A DNA stretch of 59,405 bases from [Clostridium] aminophilum (GCF_900101295.1 NZ_FOIL01000015.1:1-59405), one strand, 5' to 3'; positions 48,931 to 59,405 are shown, counted from the first letter of the stretch. Numbers and translations: made by a program. The notes: a model not told the origin generated them from the sequence alone.

Positions 48931-49013
48931 GCCGGCGTGTCGGAATGGCAGACGAGGGAGACTCAAAATCTCTTGTTGGAAACAACGTGCGGGTTCGAGT
49001 CCCGCCGCCGGCA
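48931..49013 (+). tRNA. tRNA-Leu (anticodon CAA), type II with a long variable arm
   Basis: Acceptor stem gccggcg/cgccggc. D-arm tcggaatggcagacga. Anticodon loop cuCAAaa. Long variable stem-loop cttgttggaaacaacgtg. T-arm gcggg-ttcgagt-cccgc. Discriminator A. No encoded CCA. Confidence 0.85.
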
Positions 49014-49379
49014 TCCTTGGCAGGGGCAATACGGACCGCTCAGCTGTGAGATATTCTCATGGCTGGGCGGTTTTTCCTTATATGAGCTGTCATTACAACA
49101 GCAACTGACGTTAGCATATCAAGAAGTGCGTGATTGCAATGTCTATAGCAGTAATTTCGGCCTTTCATTAAGTGAAACGGAATTTGTTCGATTGTTCTTG
49201 AAATAGTACAAAATTTAAAATATAATACTAAAAGAAGACAGAAAACTTCACGCAGTTCACGAAGGAAATATCACCAATGAAGTTGCGTGTTCATTTTTCG
49301 GAATCACCGGGAAATGTTCCGCAGGAAAAACGCTGAATGGAGAGAATCTGCTGACTGAAATCAGGAAAGGAGCAATACC

Positions 49380-49766
49380 ATGAACATCACATCGTTTAAC
49401 CCGCTGATTATTACCGATAAGGCTGATGAAGTGATCGCGTTGTTTGAAGCACTGGGCTTTGAGAAACGTCACACAAAAACCGGTATTGACGACAAGGCCT
49501 TTACCAGCGTTCGAATGAGATACACCAATGAAGAAGGAAAGGTATTTCACGTCGATGTGACGTCGGCAGACGTTCCGCAGACGATAACATCGATCCGCAT
49601 GAATGTCAGTGACTTCGATGAAACATATGAAATGCTGAAAGCAAAGGGATTTACGAACGTGCAGGGTGACAAGATCACCGATACCGGATCTTCGGTGGCA
49701 ACCATGATGGTTTCCCCAACCGGATATACCATCTCCGTTGCCAAGCACATCAAAAAGGACGAATAA
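49380..49766 (+). CDS. VOC (glyoxalase/bleomycin-resistance fold) family protein
   Basis: 128 aa, typical VOC size, with two beta-alpha-beta-beta-beta-like halves. An SD AGGAAAGGAG lies upstream. Confidence 0.5.
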   Translation: MNITSFNPLIITDKADEVIALFEALGFEKRHTKTGIDDKAFTSVRMRYTNEEGKVFHVDVTSADVPQTITSIRMNVSDFDETYEMLKAKGFTNVQGDKITDTGSSVATMMVSPTGYTISVAKHIKKDE

Positions 49767-50165
49767 GACCACAGGATTATTGTCCGGAGGATGAACGGAA
49801 GAAGGCAGAAAAAGGAGTCTGCCGGATCCGTGTCGGAATGAAACACGCGAGGAATTGTCTCGGGCCTTCTATGATTTCAAATCATAGAAGGCCTGATTTG
49901 TGTCCGGCGCGGCAGTCAAAGCTGTGATTGGAGCTGCCGTCAGAAGCGGGGAGCTGCCGTCAGAGCCGTGGAGTTGCCGTCAGACCGGGGAGAAGTGAAA
50001 GACAAAACCGAGGTCGGAGTATCAGTCAGGGTTGTCCCGCCGCGATGGACAAATGCTCCGGAAGAAGGTAAAATAAAATCTTGCATCAGGGAAAAGCGGA
50101 TCAATGCGCTTCCTCAGAATGATGTTTGATTGATACATTCCAGACATTCGGAAAACGGAGAAACG

Positions 50166-50966
50166 ATGACAGACGAACTTTTGAACCGGAAAACCTATCG
50201 GACCGACATCGGACCGATGTGCATGTCGCTGAACGAGCACGCGCGGTATCTGGCCCTTCGCGCGGAAGAAACTCCCCGGGCCAAGGCCGCACGACTGAAG
50301 CCATATCGGCTTGTCAAAGCCGTGGTGTTCGATATGGACGGCGTGATCTTTGATTCGGAGCGTCTTGTTCTGAATAGCTGGAAAATGGTGGCGGATCGCG
50401 AAAACATCCCGGAGATTGAGGAAACTGTCCGGAAGTGTCTCGGCACGAACCGGGAAGTGTCCCGAAGAATTTTTCTCGAAGCCTATGGAGAAGACTTTCC
50501 ATATGATACACTGAAACAGGAGGCGGCCGGGATCTACCACCGGATGGCCGACGGCGGAAAGCTTCCGCTCATGCGCGGTGTGAGAGAACTCCTTGGGTTT
50601 CTGAGGGAGGAAAAGCGGAAGATTGCGCTGGCATCCTCCACCAGAGAAGAGGTGGTTGTCGCGGAACTTCGCGATGCGGGACTGCTGGAGTTCTTCGATG
50701 AGGTGGTATGCGGCGACATGCTGCAGCGCAGCAAACCGGAGCCGGATATTTATCTCATGGCCTGCGAGCGGATCGGCGTTGATCCGAAGGAGGCATATGC
50801 GGTGGAGGATTCCTATAACGGAATCCGTTCAGCGTATGCGGCCGGGATGCATCCGGTCATGGTTCCGGACATGATGCCGCCGACGGAAGAGATGGAAGAA
50901 AAAAGTGAGATTATCCTGACTTCTCTGGAAGAATTGCAGGATTATTTCCGGGTGCTGTTTGCATAA
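50166..50966 (+). CDS. HAD-superfamily hydrolase (beta-phosphoglucomutase-like subfamily IA) with an N-terminal extension
   Basis: Motif I VVFDMDGVIFDSE. Motif III/IV ...AYAVEDSYNGIRSAYAAGM. An SD GGAGAAACG precedes the ATG at 50166. Confidence 0.8.
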   Translation: MTDELLNRKTYRTDIGPMCMSLNEHARYLALRAEETPRAKAARLKPYRLVKAVVFDMDGVIFDSERLVLNSWKMVADRENIPEIEETVRKCLGTNREVSRRIFLEAYGEDFPYDTLKQEAAGIYHRMADGGKLPLMRGVRELLGFLREEKRKIALASSTREEVVVAELRDAGLLEFFDEVVCGDMLQRSKPEPDIYLMACERIGVDPKEAYAVEDSYNGIRSAYAAGMHPVMVPDMMPPTEEMEEKSEIILTSLEELQDYFRVLFA

Positions 50967-51456: not shown

Positions 51457-54299
51457 GGTGTACTTTGGATAAAATACTTCTGATCGACGGACATAGTATT
51501 ATGAACCGCGCGTTCTACGGCGTTCCGGAACTGACCAATTCCAAGGGGCTGCATACCAATGCGGTGTACGGTTTCCTGAATATCATGCTGAAGGTGATCG
51601 AGGAGGAACAGGCGGATCACCTGGCGGTGGCGTTTGATCTGTCCGCGCCGACATTTCGCCATAAAATGTTCTCCGAATATAAGGGGACCAGAAAGCCGAT
51701 GCCGGAGGAACTTCGGGAGCAGATCCCGGTGATCAAGGATGTCCTGAAGGCGATGAATATTCCGATTCTTTCGATGGAAGGGTTTGAGGCGGATGATATT
51801 CTCGGAACGGTCGCGAAGCGAATGCAGGCGGAAGGAAAAGAAGTTTCCATCCTCTCGGGAGACCGGGATCTTCTGCAGCTCTCCGACGAGCACATCAAGA
51901 TCTGCCTGCCGAAGACCGTAAAGCGTGTGACGGAAGTGCATTACTACTATCCGGAGGATGTAAAGAGAGAGTACGGAATCGCCCCGATCGAGGTCATTGA
52001 CCTGAAGGCTCTTATGGGTGATTCGTCCGATAATATCCCGGGTGTGCCGTCGGTGGGCGAGAAGACGGCGACGGCAATTATCAGCGCCTATCATACCATC
52101 GAAGAAGCGTATGAGCATGTGGATGAGCTGAAGCCGCCGCGTGCACAGAAGGCGCTGCGGGAACACTGGGATATGGCCGTGATGAGCAAACAGCTTGCCA
52201 CGATCAACATTCATGTGGAGATTCCGTTCTCGTTTGAAGACGCGCATGTGGGCAATATGTTCAGCCCGGAAGGATATCAGTGGATGAAAGACCTCGAGTT
52301 CCGCGCGCTTGCACAGCGTTTTGCGGGCGCGGATGCGGGGGAGACGGAACCTTCTGTGACATTTACGGCAGTGACGGAACGGAAGAAGGCGGATGATCTT
52401 TTTGCAAAGGCAAAAAAGGCTTCATCGGCCGGCATTCAGCTTGAGATTGCGGACGGACAGATTCTTGCCTGCGGACTTGCCTTTGGTCTGGAAGAGGCGT
52501 TCGTTCTGGTCGCGGAGCAGGAAAAACAGGAAGAGGAGACCTGCACCCAGCTCGAGATGTTCCCGGAGCTTTCGGGACGCAATGCCGATCCGGATAAACC
52601 GGCATCGGATGGCCGGGACAATGCGCTGAATGCACGGTATCTTGCGGAAAAAGCGGAGGAGCTCTTCCGCGTTCATCCGAAACTGACCGTGATGGATCTG
52701 AAGGGACAGCTTCCTTTTCTGAAGAATACGGACCGGACGGTCGTGGACGGCGGACGCAATGACGGCGGAAACCGCGCGGTGATGGATGCCGGAATCGCGG
52801 GATATCTTCTGAACCCGCTGAAGGACACATACGGCTATGACGATATCGCCAGAGATTACCTTGGAATGACCATTCCGGCAAAAGAGGAACTTCTCGGAAA
52901 ATGCACCCTTGCGCAGGCGCTTTCCGGAATCGCGGAAACCGGCAGAAAATCAAAGAAAGAAAGCGATGGGGATACAGCCCCGGAGGAGCTTCGGAAGAAG
53001 GCTTTCGAGGTAATCGGCTATGATGCTTATATCGCCTGGAAGTCGAGAGAGGTGCTCGAAGACAAGATGCGGGAGACCGGCATGCTCGATCTTTTCTATG
53101 ATATCGAGATGCCGACGGTATATACGCTTTATCATATGGAAGAAGAGGGAATTATCGTTCTTCCGGAGGAACTGAAAGCGTATGCCGCAAAACTTCAGGT
53201 GCGGATCGATGAACTGGAAAAGGAGATTTATGCCGAGACCGGCCGCGAGTTTAATATCAATTCACCGAAACAGCTTGGCGAGATTCTGTTCGGCGAGATG
53301 AATCTCCCGGGCGGAAAGAAGACGAAGACCGGTTATTCCACCGCGGCGGCGGTTCTCGACAAACTCGCGCCGGATTATCCCTTTGTCCAGAAGGTTCTGG
53401 ACTACCGCCAGTATACCAAGCTGAAATCGACCTATGCGGAAGGACTCCAGCAGTACATCCGCGAGGACGGCAGGATTCACGGCACGTTTAACCAGACGAT
53501 CACGGCGACCGGACGAATCAGCAGCACGGAGCCGAATCTCCAGAATATTCCGGTTCGCATGGAACTCGGACGGGAACTGCGAAAACTCTTTGTACCGCAG
53601 GAAGGCTGCATTTTTACCGATGCGGATTATTCCCAGATCGAGCTCCGCGTTCTGGCGGGCATGTCGGGGGATGAGAATCTGATCGCAGCGTACCGTGATG
53701 CGGAAGACATTCATGCCATCACGGCATCCCAGGTCTTCCATGTTCCGCTTTCCGAGGTGACGCCGGAGCTCCGGCGCAACGCGAAAGCCGTAAATTTCGG
53801 TATCGTCTACGGCATCAGCAATTTCGGCCTCAGCAACAACCTCAGCATCTCCAGACAGGAGGCTGCCGGGTACATTGAGCGGTATTTTGAGGCATACCCG
53901 GGCGTAAAGCAGTTTATCGACCGTCTGGTCAGCGATGCGAAGGAAAAACACTATTCGGAGACGCTGTTCGGCAGAAGACGCCCGATTCCGGAGCTGGAGA
54001 GCGGCAATTTCATGCAGCGCCAGTTCGGTGAGCGTGTGGCGATGAACGCCCCCATTCAGGGGACGGCGGCCGATATCATCAAGATTGCAATGATCCGCGT
54101 CGACCGGAGACTTCGCAGGGAGGGACTGAAGTCGCGTCTGGTTCTCCAGATCCACGATGAACTTCTGATTGAGACCAGGAAAGACGAGGCGGAAGCGGTG
54201 CGGAACATTCTTTCCGAGGAAATGAAGCATGCGGCTGATCTTCCGGTATCGCTGGAGATCAGCATGTCCGAGGGACAGTCCTGGTTTGAGACGAAGTAA
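51453..54299 (+). CDS. polA: DNA polymerase I
   Basis: 948 aa. 5'-3' exonuclease N-terminus (LLIDGHSIMNRAFY). Polymerase motif A DYSQIELR, motif B RRNAKAVNFGIVYG, motif C QIHDELL. Confidence 0.93.
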   Translation: MRCTLDKILLIDGHSIMNRAFYGVPELTNSKGLHTNAVYGFLNIMLKVIEEEQADHLAVAFDLSAPTFRHKMFSEYKGTRKPMPEELREQIPVIKDVLKAMNIPILSMEGFEADDILGTVAKRMQAEGKEVSILSGDRDLLQLSDEHIKICLPKTVKRVTEVHYYYPEDVKREYGIAPIEVIDLKALMGDSSDNIPGVPSVGEKTATAIISAYHTIEEAYEHVDELKPPRAQKALREHWDMAVMSKQLATINIHVEIPFSFEDAHVGNMFSPEGYQWMKDLEFRALAQRFAGADAGETEPSVTFTAVTERKKADDLFAKAKKASSAGIQLEIADGQILACGLAFGLEEAFVLVAEQEKQEEETCTQLEMFPELSGRNADPDKPASDGRDNALNARYLAEKAEELFRVHPKLTVMDLKGQLPFLKNTDRTVVDGGRNDGGNRAVMDAGIAGYLLNPLKDTYGYDDIARDYLGMTIPAKEELLGKCTLAQALSGIAETGRKSKKESDGDTAPEELRKKAFEVIGYDAYIAWKSREVLEDKMRETGMLDLFYDIEMPTVYTLYHMEEEGIIVLPEELKAYAAKLQVRIDELEKEIYAETGREFNINSPKQLGEILFGEMNLPGGKKTKTGYSTAAAVLDKLAPDYPFVQKVLDYRQYTKLKSTYAEGLQQYIREDGRIHGTFNQTITATGRISSTEPNLQNIPVRMELGRELRKLFVPQEGCIFTDADYSQIELRVLAGMSGDENLIAAYRDAEDIHAITASQVFHVPLSEVTPELRRNAKAVNFGIVYGISNFGLSNNLSISRQEAAGYIERYFEAYPGVKQFIDRLVSDAKEKHYSETLFGRRRPIPELESGNFMQRQFGERVAMNAPIQGTAADIIKIAMIRVDRRLRREGLKSRLVLQIHDELLIETRKDEAEAVRNILSEEMKHAADLPVSLEISMSEGQSWFETK

Positions 54300-54316
54300 C
54301 GCTTCTGTAAAAAAGA

Positions 54317-54343
54317 GATAAGCATAACCATGAACAGCGGCAT
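54317..54343 (+). repeat. Left copy of the island-flanking 27-bp direct repeat (overlaps the polA terminator region)
   Basis: gataagCataaccatgaacagcGgcaT matches gataagTataaccatgaacagcAgcaG at 58983-59009 at 24 of 27 positions, in the same orientation. Confidence 0.8.
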
Positions 54344-54513
54344 GAGGCGATAACGCTTCGTGCTGCTGTTTTTTTGTGTGATGACGGCGATTTCAGCAAA
54401 AATAATTGCTTGAAAGGAACTGCATGTATTGCCTTGCAAGGGAAGCAATCTTCTTTTGTAAAGTAGCTGATTTGACAGGAAAGAATTGAATATTTGATAG
54501 GAGTTTAGAAAGT

Positions 54514-54595
54514 AAGGACCACTACCAATGAACGTTTCCATAATTGTTAGAACAAAAATCTAACGCATGGAGGTCATTACATGGTAGTGGTCCTT
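54514..54595. repeat. Perfect 14-bp inverted repeat (aaggaccactacca ... tggtagtggtcctt) with a 54-nt spacer containing a nested hairpin
   Basis: 54514-54527 against 54582-54595. The inner gttaga-acaaaaa-tctaac hairpin lies at 54546-54564. It sits in non-coding DNA at the left edge of the island. Confidence 0.7.
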
Positions 54596-54746
54596 GATTA
54601 TCTCGGATTCTTAGGAATTAGCTTGTTCGTCCTGAGGCGTGACTCAATATCGAGAGCGATCTACGAACGCTTTCCCAGAGATTAAGCGCATACCCATTTT
54701 TAAGGTCTTCGTGTTACGAAAAAAATGCCGAGAGATCCATTTATGG

Positions 54747-56657
54747 TTATTTCTCCACTTTTATAATAATATGATCAAAGCTGTCGTAGTTTATGGTTAA
54801 GAATACATCTCCGCCATGGAAAAAGTTCCGTTCCCACGTAGCTTTAAACTGTTTATCATTACTAACAACATCTGTAGTAAATCCCTTTTCCTTGCATTTC
54901 ATGATATAGTCCTCAATTTCGCTCTTCGTCAAGCCATAAACCGTTGCTTCAAAAGATTTATTTTCATCTTTTGTTAAGAAGCCGTAAACTGTTCCTCCTA
55001 TTCCATCCATTTCAGGAAGCACTGAAGTCATGCTTGGGGTTGTCCACTCAAATGTGCTACATATTACCGAGGCTTCTAGACAGTTTGAATTCCGAGCCAC
55101 AATTAAGTTGCTTTCATTTGTGGCTCTAAAAAAAGCGGTATTGCTAAATATATTGCAACGATATCCTGATTCTTGGCATTGTTTTGTGTAAGCCTCGAAA
55201 CGTGTTGAAGATACTTTGTCGAATGAAACAGTATTTCGATTTTCTTCGTTTATTAATACTTTGCCACCGCTCTCATATATTTGTGGAAAAACCTCTGAAA
55301 GTAATAATTCAGACCAATCAAAGCTTTTCTGGAAATCTATGGTCACCTCATCTGCATCACAGAAAACAGATAACCTCATTCCGTCTTTGTTGTATCCAAT
55401 AAAACTGTTTTTGCTTTGAATAACATTTTTGTTGTAACCGAATTCTACGCAACTATCAATGTATTCGTTTATGTAACTGTCTTCGGAATACTTAAGAGTT
55501 ACATTAAAAGCTTCATCTGTATTGATATGAGTTATTCCGGAATAAAAATATCCGGTGGGAATACAATTTGATAAGAACAGGCTATTCCATGCAAATGGGG
55601 GAACTATAGTGGTTTCAATATACTTGTCTCCTTGGACTATTTTGGCAAAATATCCACCTTGGTTAAATGCTTTATAACTTCGTCCATGATCTTCGCTTTC
55701 TATAGTGAAGCCTTTTTTCTTTATTTTGTCTATCCAAGAACCATAGTCTTTATCGGACTCATACTCGAATCCAAATTGCAAGAGGTCGCTAGTATCGCTG
55801 TACAGGACACCATTGATTGGGTCAAATTTCGGAACATACTTCGATAATACTCCAAGGTTATCCCATTCAATATATTTTCCATATTTTAACTCCGTGATTT
55901 TTTCCTTATAGTTGATTCTGCACATGAAGTATACAGAACCAGCAGTCATAAAAAGGCTCAGAATAAGAAAAAGAATACTCCCTGACGAACGAAAAAATCT
56001 TACTATTCTGAATCCAGCCAACACTGACGAAAGACATAATAAAATGGCAAGGATGCTCAAGACCATCGCAATGGGGCTTCCAAATATTTTCGCTAACGCA
56101 AAGATTATTATAAGAATAACTATTAAGGCAATGTCTATTTCCAATACTTGGGATTTTTGAAATGATTTACGTATCTCTTTTATTGAGGTGTTCATTTTTT
56201 CAGCCGCCACAGTTTTGGTTAGAAAGTTATCTACCGCTGTAATTCTTCCATATACTTCTTCTATACGTTGATCAGAGATACCGAGCGCTTTAGCCCTTTC
56301 ATAACAGTCGTCAGCTAAAACTTTATAGGCTTTTGCAAGTTTCAGTTCATCTTCCTGCAATTCACCATCACCGTTTTTGTCATAGTTTACTATCTGCTTA
56401 TTAGCAAGAATAAGAAATTCCAAAATATCTTCTTTGGTATTTTGGATGTGATAGTTCTCTATGAATGAGGTTTTTTCGTCTATTTCGGATTTCTTGTTTA
56501 ACTCTTTGATAAAGTCATTTATTGAATTGGTGGTGTTATTTTCTCTTATTTCAAAACCGCAGGCAGGACAGAAAGCACAAAACGATTCCAGATGAGCCCC
56601 ACAGTTTGGACATTTATAGATTTTCCCAAGGAATTGTATTTCTCGTTCTTCAGCCAT
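54747..56657 (-). CDS. Island membrane protein: an N-terminal zinc ribbon, a TM segment, and four tandem roughly 75-aa extracytoplasmic repeats
   Basis: CPNCG...CPACG at the N-terminus. Hydrophobic helices around residues 200-260. The C-terminal half has four repeats with the shared signature [ED]-x-Y-[IT]-x2-C-x-E-x-G-[FY] (WIDKIKKKGF, YIDSCVEFGY, YTKQCQESGY, YIMKCKEKGF). An SD AAGAGG lies upstream. Confidence 0.7.
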   Translation of the reverse strand: MAEEREIQFLGKIYKCPNCGAHLESFCAFCPACGFEIRENNTTNSINDFIKELNKKSEIDEKTSFIENYHIQNTKEDILEFLILANKQIVNYDKNGDGELQEDELKLAKAYKVLADDCYERAKALGISDQRIEEVYGRITAVDNFLTKTVAAEKMNTSIKEIRKSFQKSQVLEIDIALIVILIIIFALAKIFGSPIAMVLSILAILLCLSSVLAGFRIVRFFRSSGSILFLILSLFMTAGSVYFMCRINYKEKITELKYGKYIEWDNLGVLSKYVPKFDPINGVLYSDTSDLLQFGFEYESDKDYGSWIDKIKKKGFTIESEDHGRSYKAFNQGGYFAKIVQGDKYIETTIVPPFAWNSLFLSNCIPTGYFYSGITHINTDEAFNVTLKYSEDSYINEYIDSCVEFGYNKNVIQSKNSFIGYNKDGMRLSVFCDADEVTIDFQKSFDWSELLLSEVFPQIYESGGKVLINEENRNTVSFDKVSSTRFEAYTKQCQESGYRCNIFSNTAFFRATNESNLIVARNSNCLEASVICSTFEWTTPSMTSVLPEMDGIGGTVYGFLTKDENKSFEATVYGLTKSEIEDYIMKCKEKGFTTDVVSNDKQFKATWERNFFHGGDVFLTINYDSFDHIIIKVEK

Positions 56658-56719
56658 TTTGACCTCTTAATATAATAAAAAAATATTTGATGTAGGTGCC
56701 TTGATATGAAACAAATGCT

Positions 56720-58126
56720 TTATTTGTTCTCAGTTGGAATCGGGGGCATTTCGGTACCGTTACCTGTATTAGTTCCATTATTAAAAAGACCGAACAGGGC
56801 AGGAACGTCCCCGGCTTTAATCCAATTTACCATTCCTGATTTCCATACCAGTGTTTCTTTATTTATTTCGCCTGCTCCAATCATTTTAGCAAGTGTGATT
56901 AAATCATAAGGGCCAGTTGCCTGTCCATTAACTGCTACATTGTAACAAACTGAAGAAATATTGGACGGATTTGTATTTCCAGGCATTTTGGAACTGTTCA
57001 TTTGAGACATGGCACTATTCATTGTATTGGCAAGATTTTGACCAACAACGCTGCCTAATGTCATACTTGCCATTATTGAGGCCATATTTACACCATTGTC
57101 TGAGCATGAGCTTCCACCAAGATTTATATCGCCGGCGCCGTTCGAACCCATCTGACCTAAAGCATTTGCGCCTGCAATACCAACATCTGCCTGTTTCTCA
57201 GTCTGGAAAGCATCCATATTTGCGCTTTGAGTTTGTTTATGCCGAGCATATTGATCTTCTTCACGCTGTATTCTTAATGTTTCCTCAAGGTTTTCAATTT
57301 CTATTTGCTGCATATCACGAATGTTTTTAACTTTTGCCTCTTTTTCAGCATTAAGGGTAGCAATAGTGACATCCTTTGTGACTTCCATCAACTGTTTGTA
57401 GCCGAGACTTGTTTTATCAATCTCAATATTACTAATATCTAAATCGGATACTTCGATTCCAAATGATTCCCTGAATCTTTCGGTAATGACATATTCAATC
57501 TCATCGTTTATCTGTGCAATTTTACTTTCAATTTGAATCAGGGGAATATCATTCTTTGCAGGTGCGTTGATAACGATATCTTTAATATATCTATTGACAG
57601 CATTTCTGATTTCACTTTGCAGATTCTCAAGTTTAAAATCAATCAAACGATGCAATTTGATAAACTCTTTATAGTTACTTATCCTAAAAGTGATAGTTCC
57701 GTGAACAGCAACGGGGGTGCAGAAATCGGTAAATCTAGGATCATAAACATCGAAATAAGGAACGGCAAATTTCGTCTGAATGATTTTGGCGAGGTTAATA
57801 AAATAAATCTCAGCCTGAAAAGGCGAAACACCATCAAATGCTAGTCCGTAAATACTTGCTAAAACAGGAAAATTAGATGTCTTTATAGTCTGATCAAACG
57901 GTCCTTCGATATAATCTTGCATTAATCCATTCTTCTGCTTATATACAAAGACAGCTACTTCTCCGTCCTTGACTCGTAAGTGTGAATTCCAACGGATTTC
58001 ATTTTCTCTGTTGTTAGAGCCAGCAGGTGCGTCTGCCGGATGCCACTTCCAAATCAAGTAAGATCCTTCATCGCATCTTATTACATCCATGAAGCCGCCA
58101 GTTTTTGCGTGGTTGAATAATCTCAT
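56720..58126 (-). CDS. Island SPFH/Band-7 (Band_7_1, YdjI-like) protein with a C-terminal DUF4339 (GYF-like) domain
   Basis: The N-terminus resembles the Band_7_1 region of the protein at 13825. A coiled-coil middle follows, then a Gly/Asn/Ser-rich linker. The C-terminus CYNVAVNGQATGPYDLITLAKMIGAGEINKETLVWKSGMVNWIKAGDVPALFGLF matches the DUF4339 consensus. An SD GGAGG lies 9 nt upstream. Confidence 0.75.
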   Translation of the reverse strand: MRLFNHAKTGGFMDVIRCDEGSYLIWKWHPADAPAGSNNRENEIRWNSHLRVKDGEVAVFVYKQKNGLMQDYIEGPFDQTIKTSNFPVLASIYGLAFDGVSPFQAEIYFINLAKIIQTKFAVPYFDVYDPRFTDFCTPVAVHGTITFRISNYKEFIKLHRLIDFKLENLQSEIRNAVNRYIKDIVINAPAKNDIPLIQIESKIAQINDEIEYVITERFRESFGIEVSDLDISNIEIDKTSLGYKQLMEVTKDVTIATLNAEKEAKVKNIRDMQQIEIENLEETLRIQREEDQYARHKQTQSANMDAFQTEKQADVGIAGANALGQMGSNGAGDINLGGSSCSDNGVNMASIMASMTLGSVVGQNLANTMNSAMSQMNSSKMPGNTNPSNISSVCYNVAVNGQATGPYDLITLAKMIGAGEINKETLVWKSGMVNWIKAGDVPALFGLFNNGTNTGNGTEMPPIPTENK

Positions 58127-58200
58127 ATTTATCTGCCTCCTGTGCTGAATATGAGTATCTATTAGACTGCAAAAAAGATAAATAAAGAATATCTGATTAT

Positions 58201-58410
58201 TTACTCGTTAGTTTTAACTGCATCGCATATGTCTCCGATATTGCAATCAAAATAGTCGCATATACGCAAAAGTACTGATAACGCAACTTCTTCATTTCGA
58301 CGGAGCTTCGTCATCGTACCGGTTGCGATGCTTAAATCTTTTCTGAAATCAGCCTGTTGGATTCCCTTCTCGACAAGCATTAGCCATAGCTTTTTATAGC
58401 TAATCTCCAT
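58201..58410 (-). CDS. XRE-family (Cro/CI-type) helix-turn-helix transcriptional regulator, first gene of the island operon
   Basis: 69-71 aa with the HTH_XRE pattern (KLWLMLVEKGIQQADFRKDLSIATGTMTKLRRNE). An SD GGAGG lies 7 nt before the second ATG. Confidence 0.75.
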   Translation of the reverse strand: MEISYKKLWLMLVEKGIQQADFRKDLSIATGTMTKLRRNEEVALSVLLRICDYFDCNIGDICDAVKTNE

Positions 58411-58539
58411 TTGCATACCTCCAAATAGTGAACCAACCTTAAATTTATGTAGTCAAATAATTAAGTGAGTTATAAATTATAGATAAATTATAGAACACCA
58501 CCCATATTTTAGCGACAATCGTGATGAATATCAATACAA

Positions 58540-58581
58540 AGTTGCTAAAAATTCGCATGATGTTGCGAGCTTTTAGCAACT
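58540..58581. promoter_or_regulatory. Candidate operator: an 11-bp perfect inverted repeat upstream of the island XRE regulator
   Basis: aGTTGCTAAAA-20nt-TTTTAGCAACt lies 125-165 bp upstream of the XRE start in an AT-rich promoter region. Confidence 0.45.
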
Positions 58582-58890
58582 AAGCAAGCATATAATGGGG
58601 GTAATAAATCTATAGGGTAACGTTATTTATAAGATTCTGGATGCCAAGTCTGGGATCTGTTTTATGTGAAAATTGCACAAAATAACGGGGATTATAGCAC
58701 TGATTAGATGTGAGATAATATTGAAATTTTGTAAAATAATTTCTGATAATAACTAATATTATTAAAGGCCTAAATTTTAATATCTCCTTAGTGTTCGATA
58801 TTTCTCTATGGAACCCGCATAAAGTACAGGGGTTTCTGGATTATCCTACACTATGTAATTTGTTATGGATTGATATAGATTTTTTGTTTT

Positions 58891-58914
58891 GTGGCACTCG
58901 ATGTGGCACTCGAT
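58891..58914. repeat. Perfect 12-bp tandem duplication
   Basis: gtggcactcgat occurs twice in tandem. Confidence 0.8.
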
Positions 58915-58982
58915 GCATCCGAGATTTGGATATCCTAAAGGTTATTTTTTCAAACATTTGTTTCTCTGTAGATTAAGCCCAG

Positions 58983-59009
58983 ATAAGTATAACCATGAAC
59001 AGCAGCAGA
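58983..59009 (+). repeat. Right copy of the island-flanking 27-bp direct repeat; possibly the terminal inverted repeat (IRR) of the adjacent IS256-family element
   Basis: See the left copy. It lies about 50 bp from the transposase stop codon. It begins GATAAG-TATAA, reminiscent of IS256-type ends (GATAAAG...TATAA). Confidence 0.7.
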
Positions 59010-59060
59010 TAGTGTCAATAATTTTTCGCAAATTCATTTTCACCCGTCGGCTCACCATCG

Positions 59061-59405
59061 TTAACTGACTGCAGACTGATCGTCAACCTTGCGCTGAAGT
59101 TCCAGGTCGAAGAGGTGATTCATGTTCAGATATCGTTTGGATCCCCAGTTTGATGCGGCCACATGGCGCAGGCGAGCGCAGACCAACATCAGGGCACTTT
59201 GACCGTCCGGGAAAGCCCCAATCGCTTTTGTACGGCGCTTGATTTCCCGGTTAACCCGTTCTGTTGTATTGTTGGTTCGGATCCTGTTCCAGTGTTCGGT
59301 TGGATAGTCCATGTATGTGAGCGTCTCTTCGATGCCTTCTTCAACTTTATGCGCAGCTTGGGAAAGCTTCATTTCACGAAGCTTTTCAGCAACAGCGGCT
59401 GCTTT
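59061..59405 (-). CDS. IS256-family (mutator-type) transposase, C-terminal part; the N-terminus lies beyond the window
   Basis: The C-terminal region ...WNRIRTNNTTERVNREIKRRTKAIGAFPDGQSALMLVCARL... is characteristic of IS256/mutator transposases. The reading frame stays open to the window edge. Confidence 0.8.
   Translation of the reverse strand, partial: KAAAVAEKLREMKLSQAAHKVEEGIEETLTYMDYPTEHWNRIRTNNTTERVNREIKRRTKAIGAFPDGQSALMLVCARLRHVAASNWGSKRYLNMNHLFDLELQRKVDDQSAVS

Follow-up and report, generated by a model that had tools for sequence, protein, structure and literature searches.

The low-GC DNA that follows polA in this [Clostridium] aminophilum genome is best read as a strain-specific, horizontally acquired cassette of three genes, a case of ordinary accessory-genome mosaicism with no new mobile element. 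Both of the repeats that bound it are copies of the terminator region of polA itself, the right one being shortened by the insertion of an IS256-family element, and the cargo is a widespread module of an HTH regulator, an SPFH-GYF protein and a zinc-ribbon membrane protein. Here, the window denotes the whole stretch of DNA that was analysed, 59,405 nucleotides in length.

Composition of the island and its distribution among strains

The left homologous anchor of the variable region is the core gene polA (DNA polymerase I; 51465..54299, plus strand), whose product shares 99% amino-acid identity with that of C. aminophilum DSM 10710. In an identical contig (L178) the gene was called at 944 aa, with the 5_3_exonuc and DNA_pol_A domains; the open reading frame in the window is 948 aa long, and the called start differs between the two. 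At the 3' end of polA the SNPs are mosaic among four strains, indicating that homologous exchange is frequent here.

The GC content is 0.527 over positions 1-54299 and 0.543 in polA, falls to 0.362 over 54385-58980 and is 0.495 in the IS fragment at the right edge; GC3 is 0.65 in polA versus 0.33-0.43 across the three island genes. The drop after polA described in an earlier note on this DNA is real, but its size is nearer 54% to 36% than the roughly 58% to 33% given there. The same note had taken the low-GC DNA to be acquired or strain-variable, and the strains compared agree with this: three assemblies of the DSM type (L175, L176 and L177) and L181, a metagenomic strain, lack the island and have different DNA past the polA terminator. 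The cassette stands in a second context in another sample (L185). It had also remarked on the lack of an integrase, and we likewise find three genes only, all on the minus strand and all devoid of a recombinase domain. Indeed, neither a tyrosine or serine recombinase nor a transposase was found within the island among its open reading frames or in Pfam, PADLOC, PHROGs and NCBIfam profile searches.

The island DNA had no match in a plasmid collection, and Rfam returned nothing at E <= 1 over 54200-59405. The phage collection gave one 66% match, but the record concerned ('Bacteriophage sp.', marked UNVERIFIED) proved to be bacterial chromosome carrying genes for an ABC transporter and a two-component system.

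The bounding repeats belong to the polA terminator

The 27-nt direct repeat, hereafter R, lies at 54316-54342 (R_L, AGATAAGCATAACCATGAACAGCGGCA) and at 58981-59007 (R_R, AGATAAGTATAACCATGAACAGCAGCA), both on the plus strand and identical at 25/27 positions; two matches occur in the window versus none in 100 shuffles, and none is expected by chance. The pair reported earlier is therefore present, with its position and identity corrected from 54317-54343 and 58983-59009 at 24/27. The 3' half of R_L starts the 5' arm of the polA intrinsic terminator T (54332..54384, plus strand), so that R is terminator sequence, its 3' half forming together with T an 18-bp stem (54332-54371) that is followed by a T7 run; T also includes GTGTGATGA. 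The terminator was also found by a terminator scan, folds as RNA at -35.2 kcal/mol (z = -5.4) and is common to the window and DSM 10710 as far as 54384 in a BLAST comparison with L002. In DSM 10710 and in L181, R is single-copy, has no adjoining IS and forms the 5' arm of the terminator. An integron-like attC reading of the terminator was considered and rejected, since its core sites depart from GTTRRRY and an integron integrase is lacking.

R_R is a second, displaced copy of this 5' region, severed from its T by the IS. The earlier note had held that the repeats are not a target-site duplication of the IS, and on this it was right. The repeat measures only 27 bp because it is limited by an indel of a segment X to its left and by the IS insertion to its right, and it is best explained as the visible remnant of a duplication that took in more of the terminator region. 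Judged from the break points of Logan contigs alone, the repeat before the IS insertion would have spanned at least 111 bp.

The IS256-family element at the right edge

The right end of the element occupies 59008..59405 on the minus strand, with a terminal inverted repeat at 59008-59042 (GATAGTGTCAATAATTTTTCGCAAATTCATTTTCA) and the last 114 transposase codons at 59061-59405, where it runs off the window. The C-terminal fragment matches PF00872 (Transposase_mut, 3e-18) and the NCBIfam profile transpos_IS256 (NF033543, 1.3e-19), the latter at a score under the full-length cut-off because the window end truncates the transposase. These 114 residues are those of a Mutator-type DDE transposase, as in the IS256 family, and the family assignment made earlier for the transposase closing the window is borne out. 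No copy identical to the fragment was found in the protein collection (best match 91%), and no second copy of the IS was found within the 59-kb window. Two further transposases, P0001 and P0004, led only to decayed relatives, each at a single locus.

A three-way alignment with a related decayed copy (L083), which has a matching 37-nt IRL/IRR pair, and with a second related copy (L082) places the IS terminus at 59008, directly after R_R. The homology of the right copy to DSM 10710 stops exactly at this terminus, and the IS therefore inserted into a pre-existing R-T. Nor does R_L supply the cargo with a functional IS end at its far boundary: aligned to the IS inverted repeat, R scores 4, versus a mean of 4.9 for random 27-mers. 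A repeat that adjoins an IS need not be an IS end.

Gene content of the cassette

The left part of the strain-specific DNA (54454..54746) is non-coding and contains a near-perfect long hairpin at 54514-54595 (fold -40.2 kcal/mol, z = -7.3). It is followed by a gene for a 636-aa membrane protein (54747..56657, minus strand) with an N-terminal zinc ribbon (a weak match to Zn_Ribbon_1), a hydrophobic block at residues 166-248 in the hydropathy profile and C-terminal DUF6591 repeats (Pfam, 1.5e-24). The adjoining gene (56720..58126, minus strand) encodes a soluble SPFH protein of 468 aa that lacks any hydrophobic segment and combines Band_7_1 with a C-terminal GYF_2 domain (Pfam, 2.3e-23 and 2.7e-16). 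Homologues of this protein occur in 80 metagenome loci at no more than 65% amino-acid identity; the N-terminus of the 636-aa protein was matched beside the SPFH gene in about 64 of these 80, the remainder being mostly short contigs. The first gene of the cassette encodes a 71-aa Cro/C1-type HTH_26 regulator (58201..58416, minus strand; Pfam, 4.4e-17); most related loci likewise have it upstream of the module, with 72-87% amino-acid identity. Its predicted promoter/operator region (58417..58603, minus strand) comprises an 18-nt palindrome (58540-58581) as well as -35/-10 hexamers (58534-58506).

The copy of the cassette in L185, which comes from another sample, is 99.06% identical over 3.28 kb; the alignment ends at about 58603, beyond which the right flank differs, and the cassette thus stands in a second context there. 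The AT-rich non-coding spacer that follows in the window (58604..58920, GC 0.32), with GTGGCACTCGAT twice in tandem at 58891-58914, is absent from L185, DSM 10710 and L181.

Among the three cargo proteins, the sole PADLOC match was a partial SduA at 0.0034, to the 636-aa protein; PHROGs profiles gave no meaningful match, and a PDB sequence search gave a weak GYF-domain match only. This uncharacterised module has a wide distribution among gut Firmicutes and shifts between contexts at 99% identity.

Alleles and junctions

The region after polA exists in distinct alleles. In DSM 10710 the order is polA-GAGAT-X-R-T followed by other genes, and in L181 it is polA-GAGAT-R-T-F, where F is a native downstream flank of 69 nt (54385..54453 in the window, plus strand; 97% shared with the island-less L181). 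The left copy of the 5-bp microhomology GAGAT in the window (54315..54319, plus strand) marks the end of the sequence shared with DSM 10710 before the latter's X; X is missing from this left copy and from L181, as a 58-nt indel flanked by AGAT, and window positions 54316-54384 are 96% identical to R-T of DSM 10710. L181 has the same arrangement as the window up to 54454 and then diverges (54454/54455); the left copy therefore belongs to an X-less allele in which F is native, and the island starts at 54454.

The right copy is of the other type. The 55-nt segment X, which in DSM 10710 lies between polA-GAGAT and R, occupies 58926..58980 (plus strand), preceded by the right copy of GAGAT (58921..58925, plus strand), and 58921-59007 is 94% identical to GAGAT-X-R of DSM 10710. 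The foreign DNA is accordingly joined head to tail with a DSM-type polA-downstream segment at the 5-bp GAGAT microhomology, so that an L181-type allele (polA-R-T-F) stands on its left and a DSM-type one (GAGAT-X-R) on its right. X and F combined on one allele, which our model requires for the right copy, was not seen in the other strains compared.

DSM 10710 independently carries a cassette with a 309-aa gene between T and a diverged copy T'-F', its F being about 81% identical to that of the window and placed after this second terminator T'. A cassette between two terminator copies past polA is seen, then, in two strains. A search with the 309-aa gene found a single metagenome contig of 1.36 kb, with a different context and no terminator copy. 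The low-GC DNA past polA in DSM 10710 also holds prophage-like genes (ImmA/Peptidase_M78, HTH, SRAP and NERD). An IS256-like remnant after T', suggested by N-terminal motifs, received no support from Pfam or from BLAST to L083 and was discarded.

The left junction (polA-R_L-T) and the island interior were independently assembled, at 100% identity, in Logan contigs L178 and L001, the latter having its right end at 58864; the right junction (island-X-R_R-IS) is present in the window's own assembly only, no independent contig covering 58865-59405. The Logan contigs of this genome have breaks at 54369 and 54397, which would be the positions expected with k = 31 if 54340-54426 occurs twice; the sites that bound this putative repeat are a SNP between R_L and R_R (54339) and a position polymorphic with respect to L181 (54427). 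The breaks fit an order of IS, target-site duplication (CAGCAGCA) and T-F beyond the IS, where the second T-F copy is suggested by the break points alone. In that case, the DNA past the IS would read CAGCAGCA followed by TGAGGCGATAACGC and the rest of T-F.

Origin of the arrangement

We regard it as somewhat more probable than its negation that the cassette sits in a strain-variable hotspot, where it was joined by homologous and illegitimate recombination between two allelic copies, with the IS arriving later. The polA-downstream region of [Clostridium] aminophilum would act as the recombination hotspot, and the low-GC foreign cassette would have come to lie between the X-less polA-GAGAT-R-T-F on the left and GAGAT-X-R on the right. 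An illegitimate join at the 5-bp GAGAT would most likely have been combined with homologous recombination, for which either polA or the R-T-F segment served as anchor. The incoming DNA could stem from another strain and have been taken in by homology-facilitated illegitimate recombination, or a fragment could have circularised and undergone a Campbell-type crossover. Later, an IS256-family element would have entered the right copy at the exact boundary of R and the remaining terminator. The island, on this account, would have been moved neither by an IS nor by a site-specific recombinase. Both the recombination mechanism and the lineage that gained or lost DNA are inferred, and this lineage may have undergone an insertion or, alternatively, the DSM lineage a GAGAT-mediated deletion.

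An att site used by an integrase acting in trans, supplied for example by a prophage or an ICE further downstream, is an unlikely explanation. The island would then be an integrase-less, CIME-like element, the polA terminator region (R or R-T-F) its att site, and R_L and R_R its attL and attR; the earlier note had suggested that the repeats could be att-like sites. In Streptococcus thermophilus, CIMEs and ICEs accrete at an att site in the 3' end of a gene, and there are likenesses: here, where a conserved gene has its 3' end, foreign DNA without an integrase is flanked by direct repeats (25/27), possibly in a site-separated tandem array. The probable length of the repeat before the IS insertion, at least 111 bp, would suit such a site, L181 with its polA-R-T-F could represent the empty one, and DSM 10710 has prophage-like genes past polA and a second terminator copy T'. 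The island differs from the CIMEs, however, in that no integrase was found and none of the three genes encodes a recombinase. In DSM 10710, moreover, the sole R has X to its left and T to its right; these are the island-side flanks, incompatible with a simple attB. The repeats here derive from X-bearing and X-less alleles, the X junction is a 5-bp microhomology typical of illegitimate joining, and the 99%-identical cassette in L185 switches its right flank at 58603 and not at a copy of R. The R pattern had no match in the metagenome and viral contig collections, and the att-like reading as originally put is not supported.

Similarly improbable, in our view, is that the arrangement in the window is ancestral or an in-situ tandem duplication, from which DSM 10710 derived by deletion between the GAGAT copies, losing the island. 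Removing 54320-58925 and the IS from the window does give the arrangement of DSM 10710, with a GAGAT at either end of the deletion, and a microhomology-mediated deletion is as parsimonious as an insertion. Yet the composition of the island is foreign (GC 0.36 versus 0.53; GC3 0.33 versus 0.65), a 99% identical copy of the cassette stands in another context, and L181 is also island-free while diverging elsewhere (54454), so that there are at least two different alleles without the island; how the flanking duplication arose would also still need explaining.

It is tempting to speculate that R-T-F is a recurrently used insertion site, at which a recombinase in trans, or a mechanism that targets hairpins or terminators, accretes integrase-less cassettes in tandem after polA, each with its own terminator copy; we hold this to be quite improbable. 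In this strain and in DSM 10710 the cassettes are bracketed by two copies of the segment, and an IS256-family element lies inside one of them.

The proposal in the earlier note that the right repeat is the terminal repeat of the IS and the left one a solo IS end, so that the transposase could mobilise IRR-cargo-IRR-tnp-IRL as a one-ended or composite unit, is very improbable and contradicted by the sequence evidence. In its favour, R starts GATAAG.ATAA, the initial 11 nt of R fit the IRL of the decayed L083 copy (GATAACGTATAA) with one gap, a fit that only 0.85% of random 27-mers equal, and the IS directly adjoins R_R. Compared with the inverted repeat that the IS in the window carries, however, R scores under the mean of random 27-mers; it occurs IS-free as part of a terminator stem in DSM-type strains and L181, and is repeated in direct and not inverted orientation. 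The DSM homology, moreover, ends exactly at the IS terminus, and no second IS was found in the 59-kb window. Finally, a chimeric join of the right junction at a short repeat is scarcely credible, even with 58865-59405 lacking an independent contig and Logan contigs breaking on both sides of the island, given that independent k-mer assembly reproduces the left junction and the interior at 100%, that ordinary reads easily span an 87-bp repeat, and that GAGAT-X-R matches DSM 10710 at 94% and not at 100%, which speaks against a contaminating DSM read set.

Comparison with known systems

The GC drop and the repeat pair are explained, under the recombination account that we favour, as scars at a variable locus of a rumen Lachnospiraceae species, and they carry interest little beyond annotation. 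The locus resembles core-gene-anchored hotspots, as the foreign DNA lies beside a conserved anchor gene with mosaic SNPs and the cargo varies by strain. Homology-facilitated illegitimate recombination was reportedly described in Acinetobacter by de Vries and Wackernagel, and in S. pneumoniae by Prudhomme and colleagues, both in 2002. Here too, homology on one side goes with a join at a microhomology of 3-10 bp (GAGAT) on the other. In contrast, the recipient's whole downstream segment was kept, so that the terminator region is duplicated and not replaced, and the process is known here from sequence alone.

With IS256 and the Tn4001-type composite transposons, the element at the right edge shares a Mutator-type DDE transposase, a terminal inverted repeat, roughly 35 bp long, that starts GATA and perhaps an 8-bp duplication (CAGCAGCA), with which the contig breaks are compatible. 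However, the window contains a single end of the IS, such ends do not bracket the cargo, and the 27-mer is no IS end.

As for the cargo, the pspA-ydjGHI (samGHI) envelope-stress operon of Bacillus subtilis offers a parallel: the gene for a soluble SPFH protein, YdjI, adjoins genes for integral membrane proteins, YdjG and YdjH, which bring YdjI to the membrane (PMC8581546). The island similarly pairs a soluble Band_7_1 SPFH gene (468 aa) with that of a membrane partner (636 aa). Unlike the Bacillus operon, it is without a pspA gene, its SPFH protein has an extra GYF_2 domain, its membrane protein has DUF6591 repeats, and its regulator is an HTH_26 protein versus sigma-W; the likeness is one of domains and gene pairing.

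The repeat and the polA terminator

The feature downstream of polA occupies a recombination hotspot; it is an ordinary accessory islet that later received an IS256-family insertion. An earlier note had picked out a GC drop, a direct repeat and an IS256-family element here, and all three were confirmed. GC is ~0.50-0.57 in the window as far as the polA stop (54299), 0.30-0.42 across 54400-59000 and ~0.50 in the final 400 bases, with means of 0.527 for window 1-54299, 0.543 for polA, 0.362 for 54385-58980 and 0.495 for the IS fragment; GC3 is 0.65 in polA vs 0.33-0.43 in the island genes. The 27-nt repeat, R, stands at 54316-54342 (left copy, R_L, AGATAAGCATAACCATGAACAGCGGCA) and 58981-59007 (right copy, R_R, AGATAAGTATAACCATGAACAGCAGCA). 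These copies are identical at 25 of 27 positions, one of the differences being at 54339 (G in R_L, A in R_R), and are the sole two matches in the window (0 in 100 shuffles). The final 345 bases code for the C-terminal part of a Mutator/IS256-type transposase. The region after polA contains no tRNA, Rfam match or recombinase.

The window polA shares 99% amino-acid identity with that of [Clostridium] aminophilum DSM 10710; no other relative exceeds 67%. The DSM 10710 locus (L002/L175), assembly GCA_900112885 (L176) and a Logan assembly (L177) have the same layout: polA stop, CGCTTCTGTAAAAAAGAGAT, a segment X, R, the terminator T (TGAGGCGATAACGCTTCGTGCTGCTGTTTTTTGTGTGATGA) and then different genes, likewise low-GC. 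In DSM 10710, X spans 54 nt (TTGGATATCC...AAGCCC; L002 12688-12741), and its window counterpart, between GAGAT and R_R, is 58926-58980. Window 58921-59007 (GAGAT-X-R) matches DSM at 94%, and window 54316-54384 (R-T) at 96%. The island-free metagenomic strain L181 carries polA-GAGAT-R-T-F without X and is 97% identical to the window as far as 54454, with unrelated DNA after. Together, these layouts show that R is a native single-copy sequence in island-free strains, that F (the 69 nt after the terminator, 54385-54453) is native too, and that 54454-58920 is the strain-specific DNA. The earlier proposal that the low-GC region was acquired is thus borne out, as island-free strains (DSM-type and L181) carry other DNA after the native segment, and its view that the repeats are not a target-site duplication also held.

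Joined to T, the 3' half of R makes an 18-bp stem with a T-run behind it (-35.2 kcal/mol, z = -5.4), which is the textbook form of an intrinsic terminator and here serves polA. The repeat match stops on the left because the R_L copy lacks X, a 58-nt indel with AGAT at its flanks, while the R_R copy has it, and on the right because the IS inserted there; therefore, the length of 27 bp is accidental. X contains a promoter-like hexamer pair, TTGTTT-17 nt-TAGATT, directed into R-T, which could in principle drive a ~65-nt terminator-ended transcript; the X segment had no Rfam match.

Between a 128-aa gene and a HAD hydrolase gene (window 49973-50014) lies a second strain-variable spot. There, the metagenomic strains L179 and L180 carry a ~1.8-kb insertion (953-2731) encoding a 205-aa protein and an AbiEii-family protein, and the window differs from DSM at 26 positions in 49928-50177. 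GC falls to 0.42 at 49000-49600, directly past a tRNA-Leu (48931-49013).

Origin of the arrangement

Two things set the window apart from DSM: extra DNA at 54320-58925, lying between GAGAT and X, and the IS. The extra segment has GAGAT, a 5-bp microhomology, at both ends, and its first part is an R-T-F copy of the L181 type. What results is two alleles of one polA-downstream segment, placed head to tail on either side of foreign DNA. The most economical route would combine homologous recombination, anchored in polA or R-T-F, with a single illegitimate join at GAGAT, possibly as homology-facilitated illegitimate recombination or as a Campbell-type crossover of a circularised fragment; the direction may be gain here or GAGAT-mediated loss in DSM. 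The IS256-family element inserted later, into the right copy. Homologous exchange is supported by the patchwork of SNPs at the polA 3' end among the window, DSM, L181 and L179, and the L179 contig breaks directly before GAGAT, as would be expected of a metagenome whose alleles diverge there. Independent support comes from DSM 10710, whose own cassette (L002 12769-14045), encoding a 309-aa protein of unassigned function, lies between T and a ~81% second copy of terminator and flank (T'-F'), the same layout of a cassette flanked by two terminator copies. Just past T'-F', at L002 14050-14340, are the motif GATAACGTAT... and a short reading frame (…LQEYDIETAEDIRDALKDLLG…) that we take to resemble an IS256-family left end and N-terminus, an identity unconfirmed by Pfam and by BLAST to a related IS. 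We think it quite improbable that the polA terminator serves as a repeatedly used insertion site with a targeting mechanism behind it.

CIME-like site-specific integration, with R as the attachment sequence, is weakened by several observations. An integrase is absent from the region, the flanks of R in DSM are "wrong" for an attB, searches of the metagenome and viral collections found no R, and the cassette has a different flank in a second sample. An assembly error, in turn, is unlikely: the right junction is known from the window assembly alone, but the left junction and the interior were independently assembled. Logan contigs (k = 31) from sample SRR4140257, 100% identical to the window, end at 54369 (L178) and start at 54397 (L001), exactly the positions expected if that genome contained 54340-54426 twice. 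Differences in the second copy would fall at 54339 and at 54427, where the window has T and L181 has A. These break points also fit an IS far side made of CAGCAGCA, the 8-bp duplication, followed by T and F. The predicted order would be IS left end-CAGCAGCA-TGAGGCGATAACGCTTCGTGCTGCTGTTTTTT-GTGTGATGACGGCG..., with a non-T base at the 54427-equivalent position, and the pre-IS duplication would have been at least 111 bp. The k-mer assembly also breaks at the right end of L001 (58864/58865), yet the window holds no second copy of 58834-58865, which suggests that the genome contains a further repeat copy, or a variant of it, at some other place.

A three-way alignment of the window IS end with two related IS copies (L083 and L082) agrees up to ...TTGACACTATC and diverges completely past that, which puts the IS terminus at 59008, the base next to R_R. 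Exactly at this terminus the right copy stops matching DSM, which goes on with T; R-T was therefore already in place when the IS inserted, within the 5' arm of the terminator stem. The 37-nt IRL and IRR of a related, decayed IS copy are a pair of this sequence type as well. The GATAAG..ATAA likeness of R that the earlier note remarked on extends only to the IRL of another, decayed relative, over 11 nt with a single gap, a fit equalled by 0.85% of random 27-mers, and we treat it as chance. The earlier idea that R is an IS256 end, and with it IS256-mediated mobilisation of the island, is contradicted by the native terminator sequence of R, by the position of the IS terminus, and by a score of only 4 for R against the inverted repeat of the IS present in the window (null mean 4.9 for random 27-mers).

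Gene content of the island

The island comprises three genes, all on the minus strand, encoding a 71-aa HTH_26 regulator, a 468-aa Band_7_1 SPFH protein with a GYF_2 domain, and a 636-aa protein that combines a zinc ribbon with a hydrophobic block and DUF6591 repeats. In the second sample (L185), this cassette is 99.06% identical across window 55322-58603 and the flank past 58603 is unrelated, so the cassette, with its putative promoter and palindromic operator (58506-58581), is a unit known from two contexts or more. The AT-rich stretch 58604-58920 is not part of the cassette. This spacer contains a perfect tandem duplication (GTGGCACTCGAT x2, 58891-58914) just ahead of the GAGAT junction. 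At the other end, past the polA terminator flank and ahead of the 3' end of the 636-aa gene, lies a long, nearly perfect hairpin (54514-54595; -40.2 kcal/mol, z = -7.3) with a 14-bp perfect outer stem and further internal pairing; it lacks a T-run, matches nothing in Rfam and is not repeated in any of the loci compared.

Among 80 related metagenome loci (L094-L173), with amino-acid identity of at most 65%, the N-terminus of the zinc-ribbon membrane protein was matched beside the SPFH-GYF gene in ~64, and the HTH_26 regulator was additionally present in ~42, the rest being mostly short contigs. Gene order varies, HTH-ZnR-SPFH being usual and the HTH-SPFH-ZnR of the window rarer, and the membrane partner has a variable C-terminus, with DUF6591 in some only. 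Across these loci from gut and rumen metagenomes, HTH_26, the zinc-ribbon membrane protein and SPFH-GYF form a conserved module, which appears to be an uncharacterised system. The cassette had no matches in PADLOC, PHROG or plasmids, and none informative in PDB. The single "phage" database match (L093; GenBank MT835670.1, "UNVERIFIED: Bacteriophage sp.") looks like bacterial chromosome, with ABC transporter, FtsX permease, histidine kinase and LytTR regulator genes surrounding the module.

The SPFH protein has no hydrophobic segment, and the hydrophobic block of its 636-aa partner spans residues 166-248. The role of the cassette is most likely that of a membrane-associated scaffold or a stress function under an HTH repressor. 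In B. subtilis, YdjI is a soluble SPFH protein that YdjG/YdjH recruit to the membrane (PMC8581546), a parallel to the soluble SPFH protein and the membrane partner found here.
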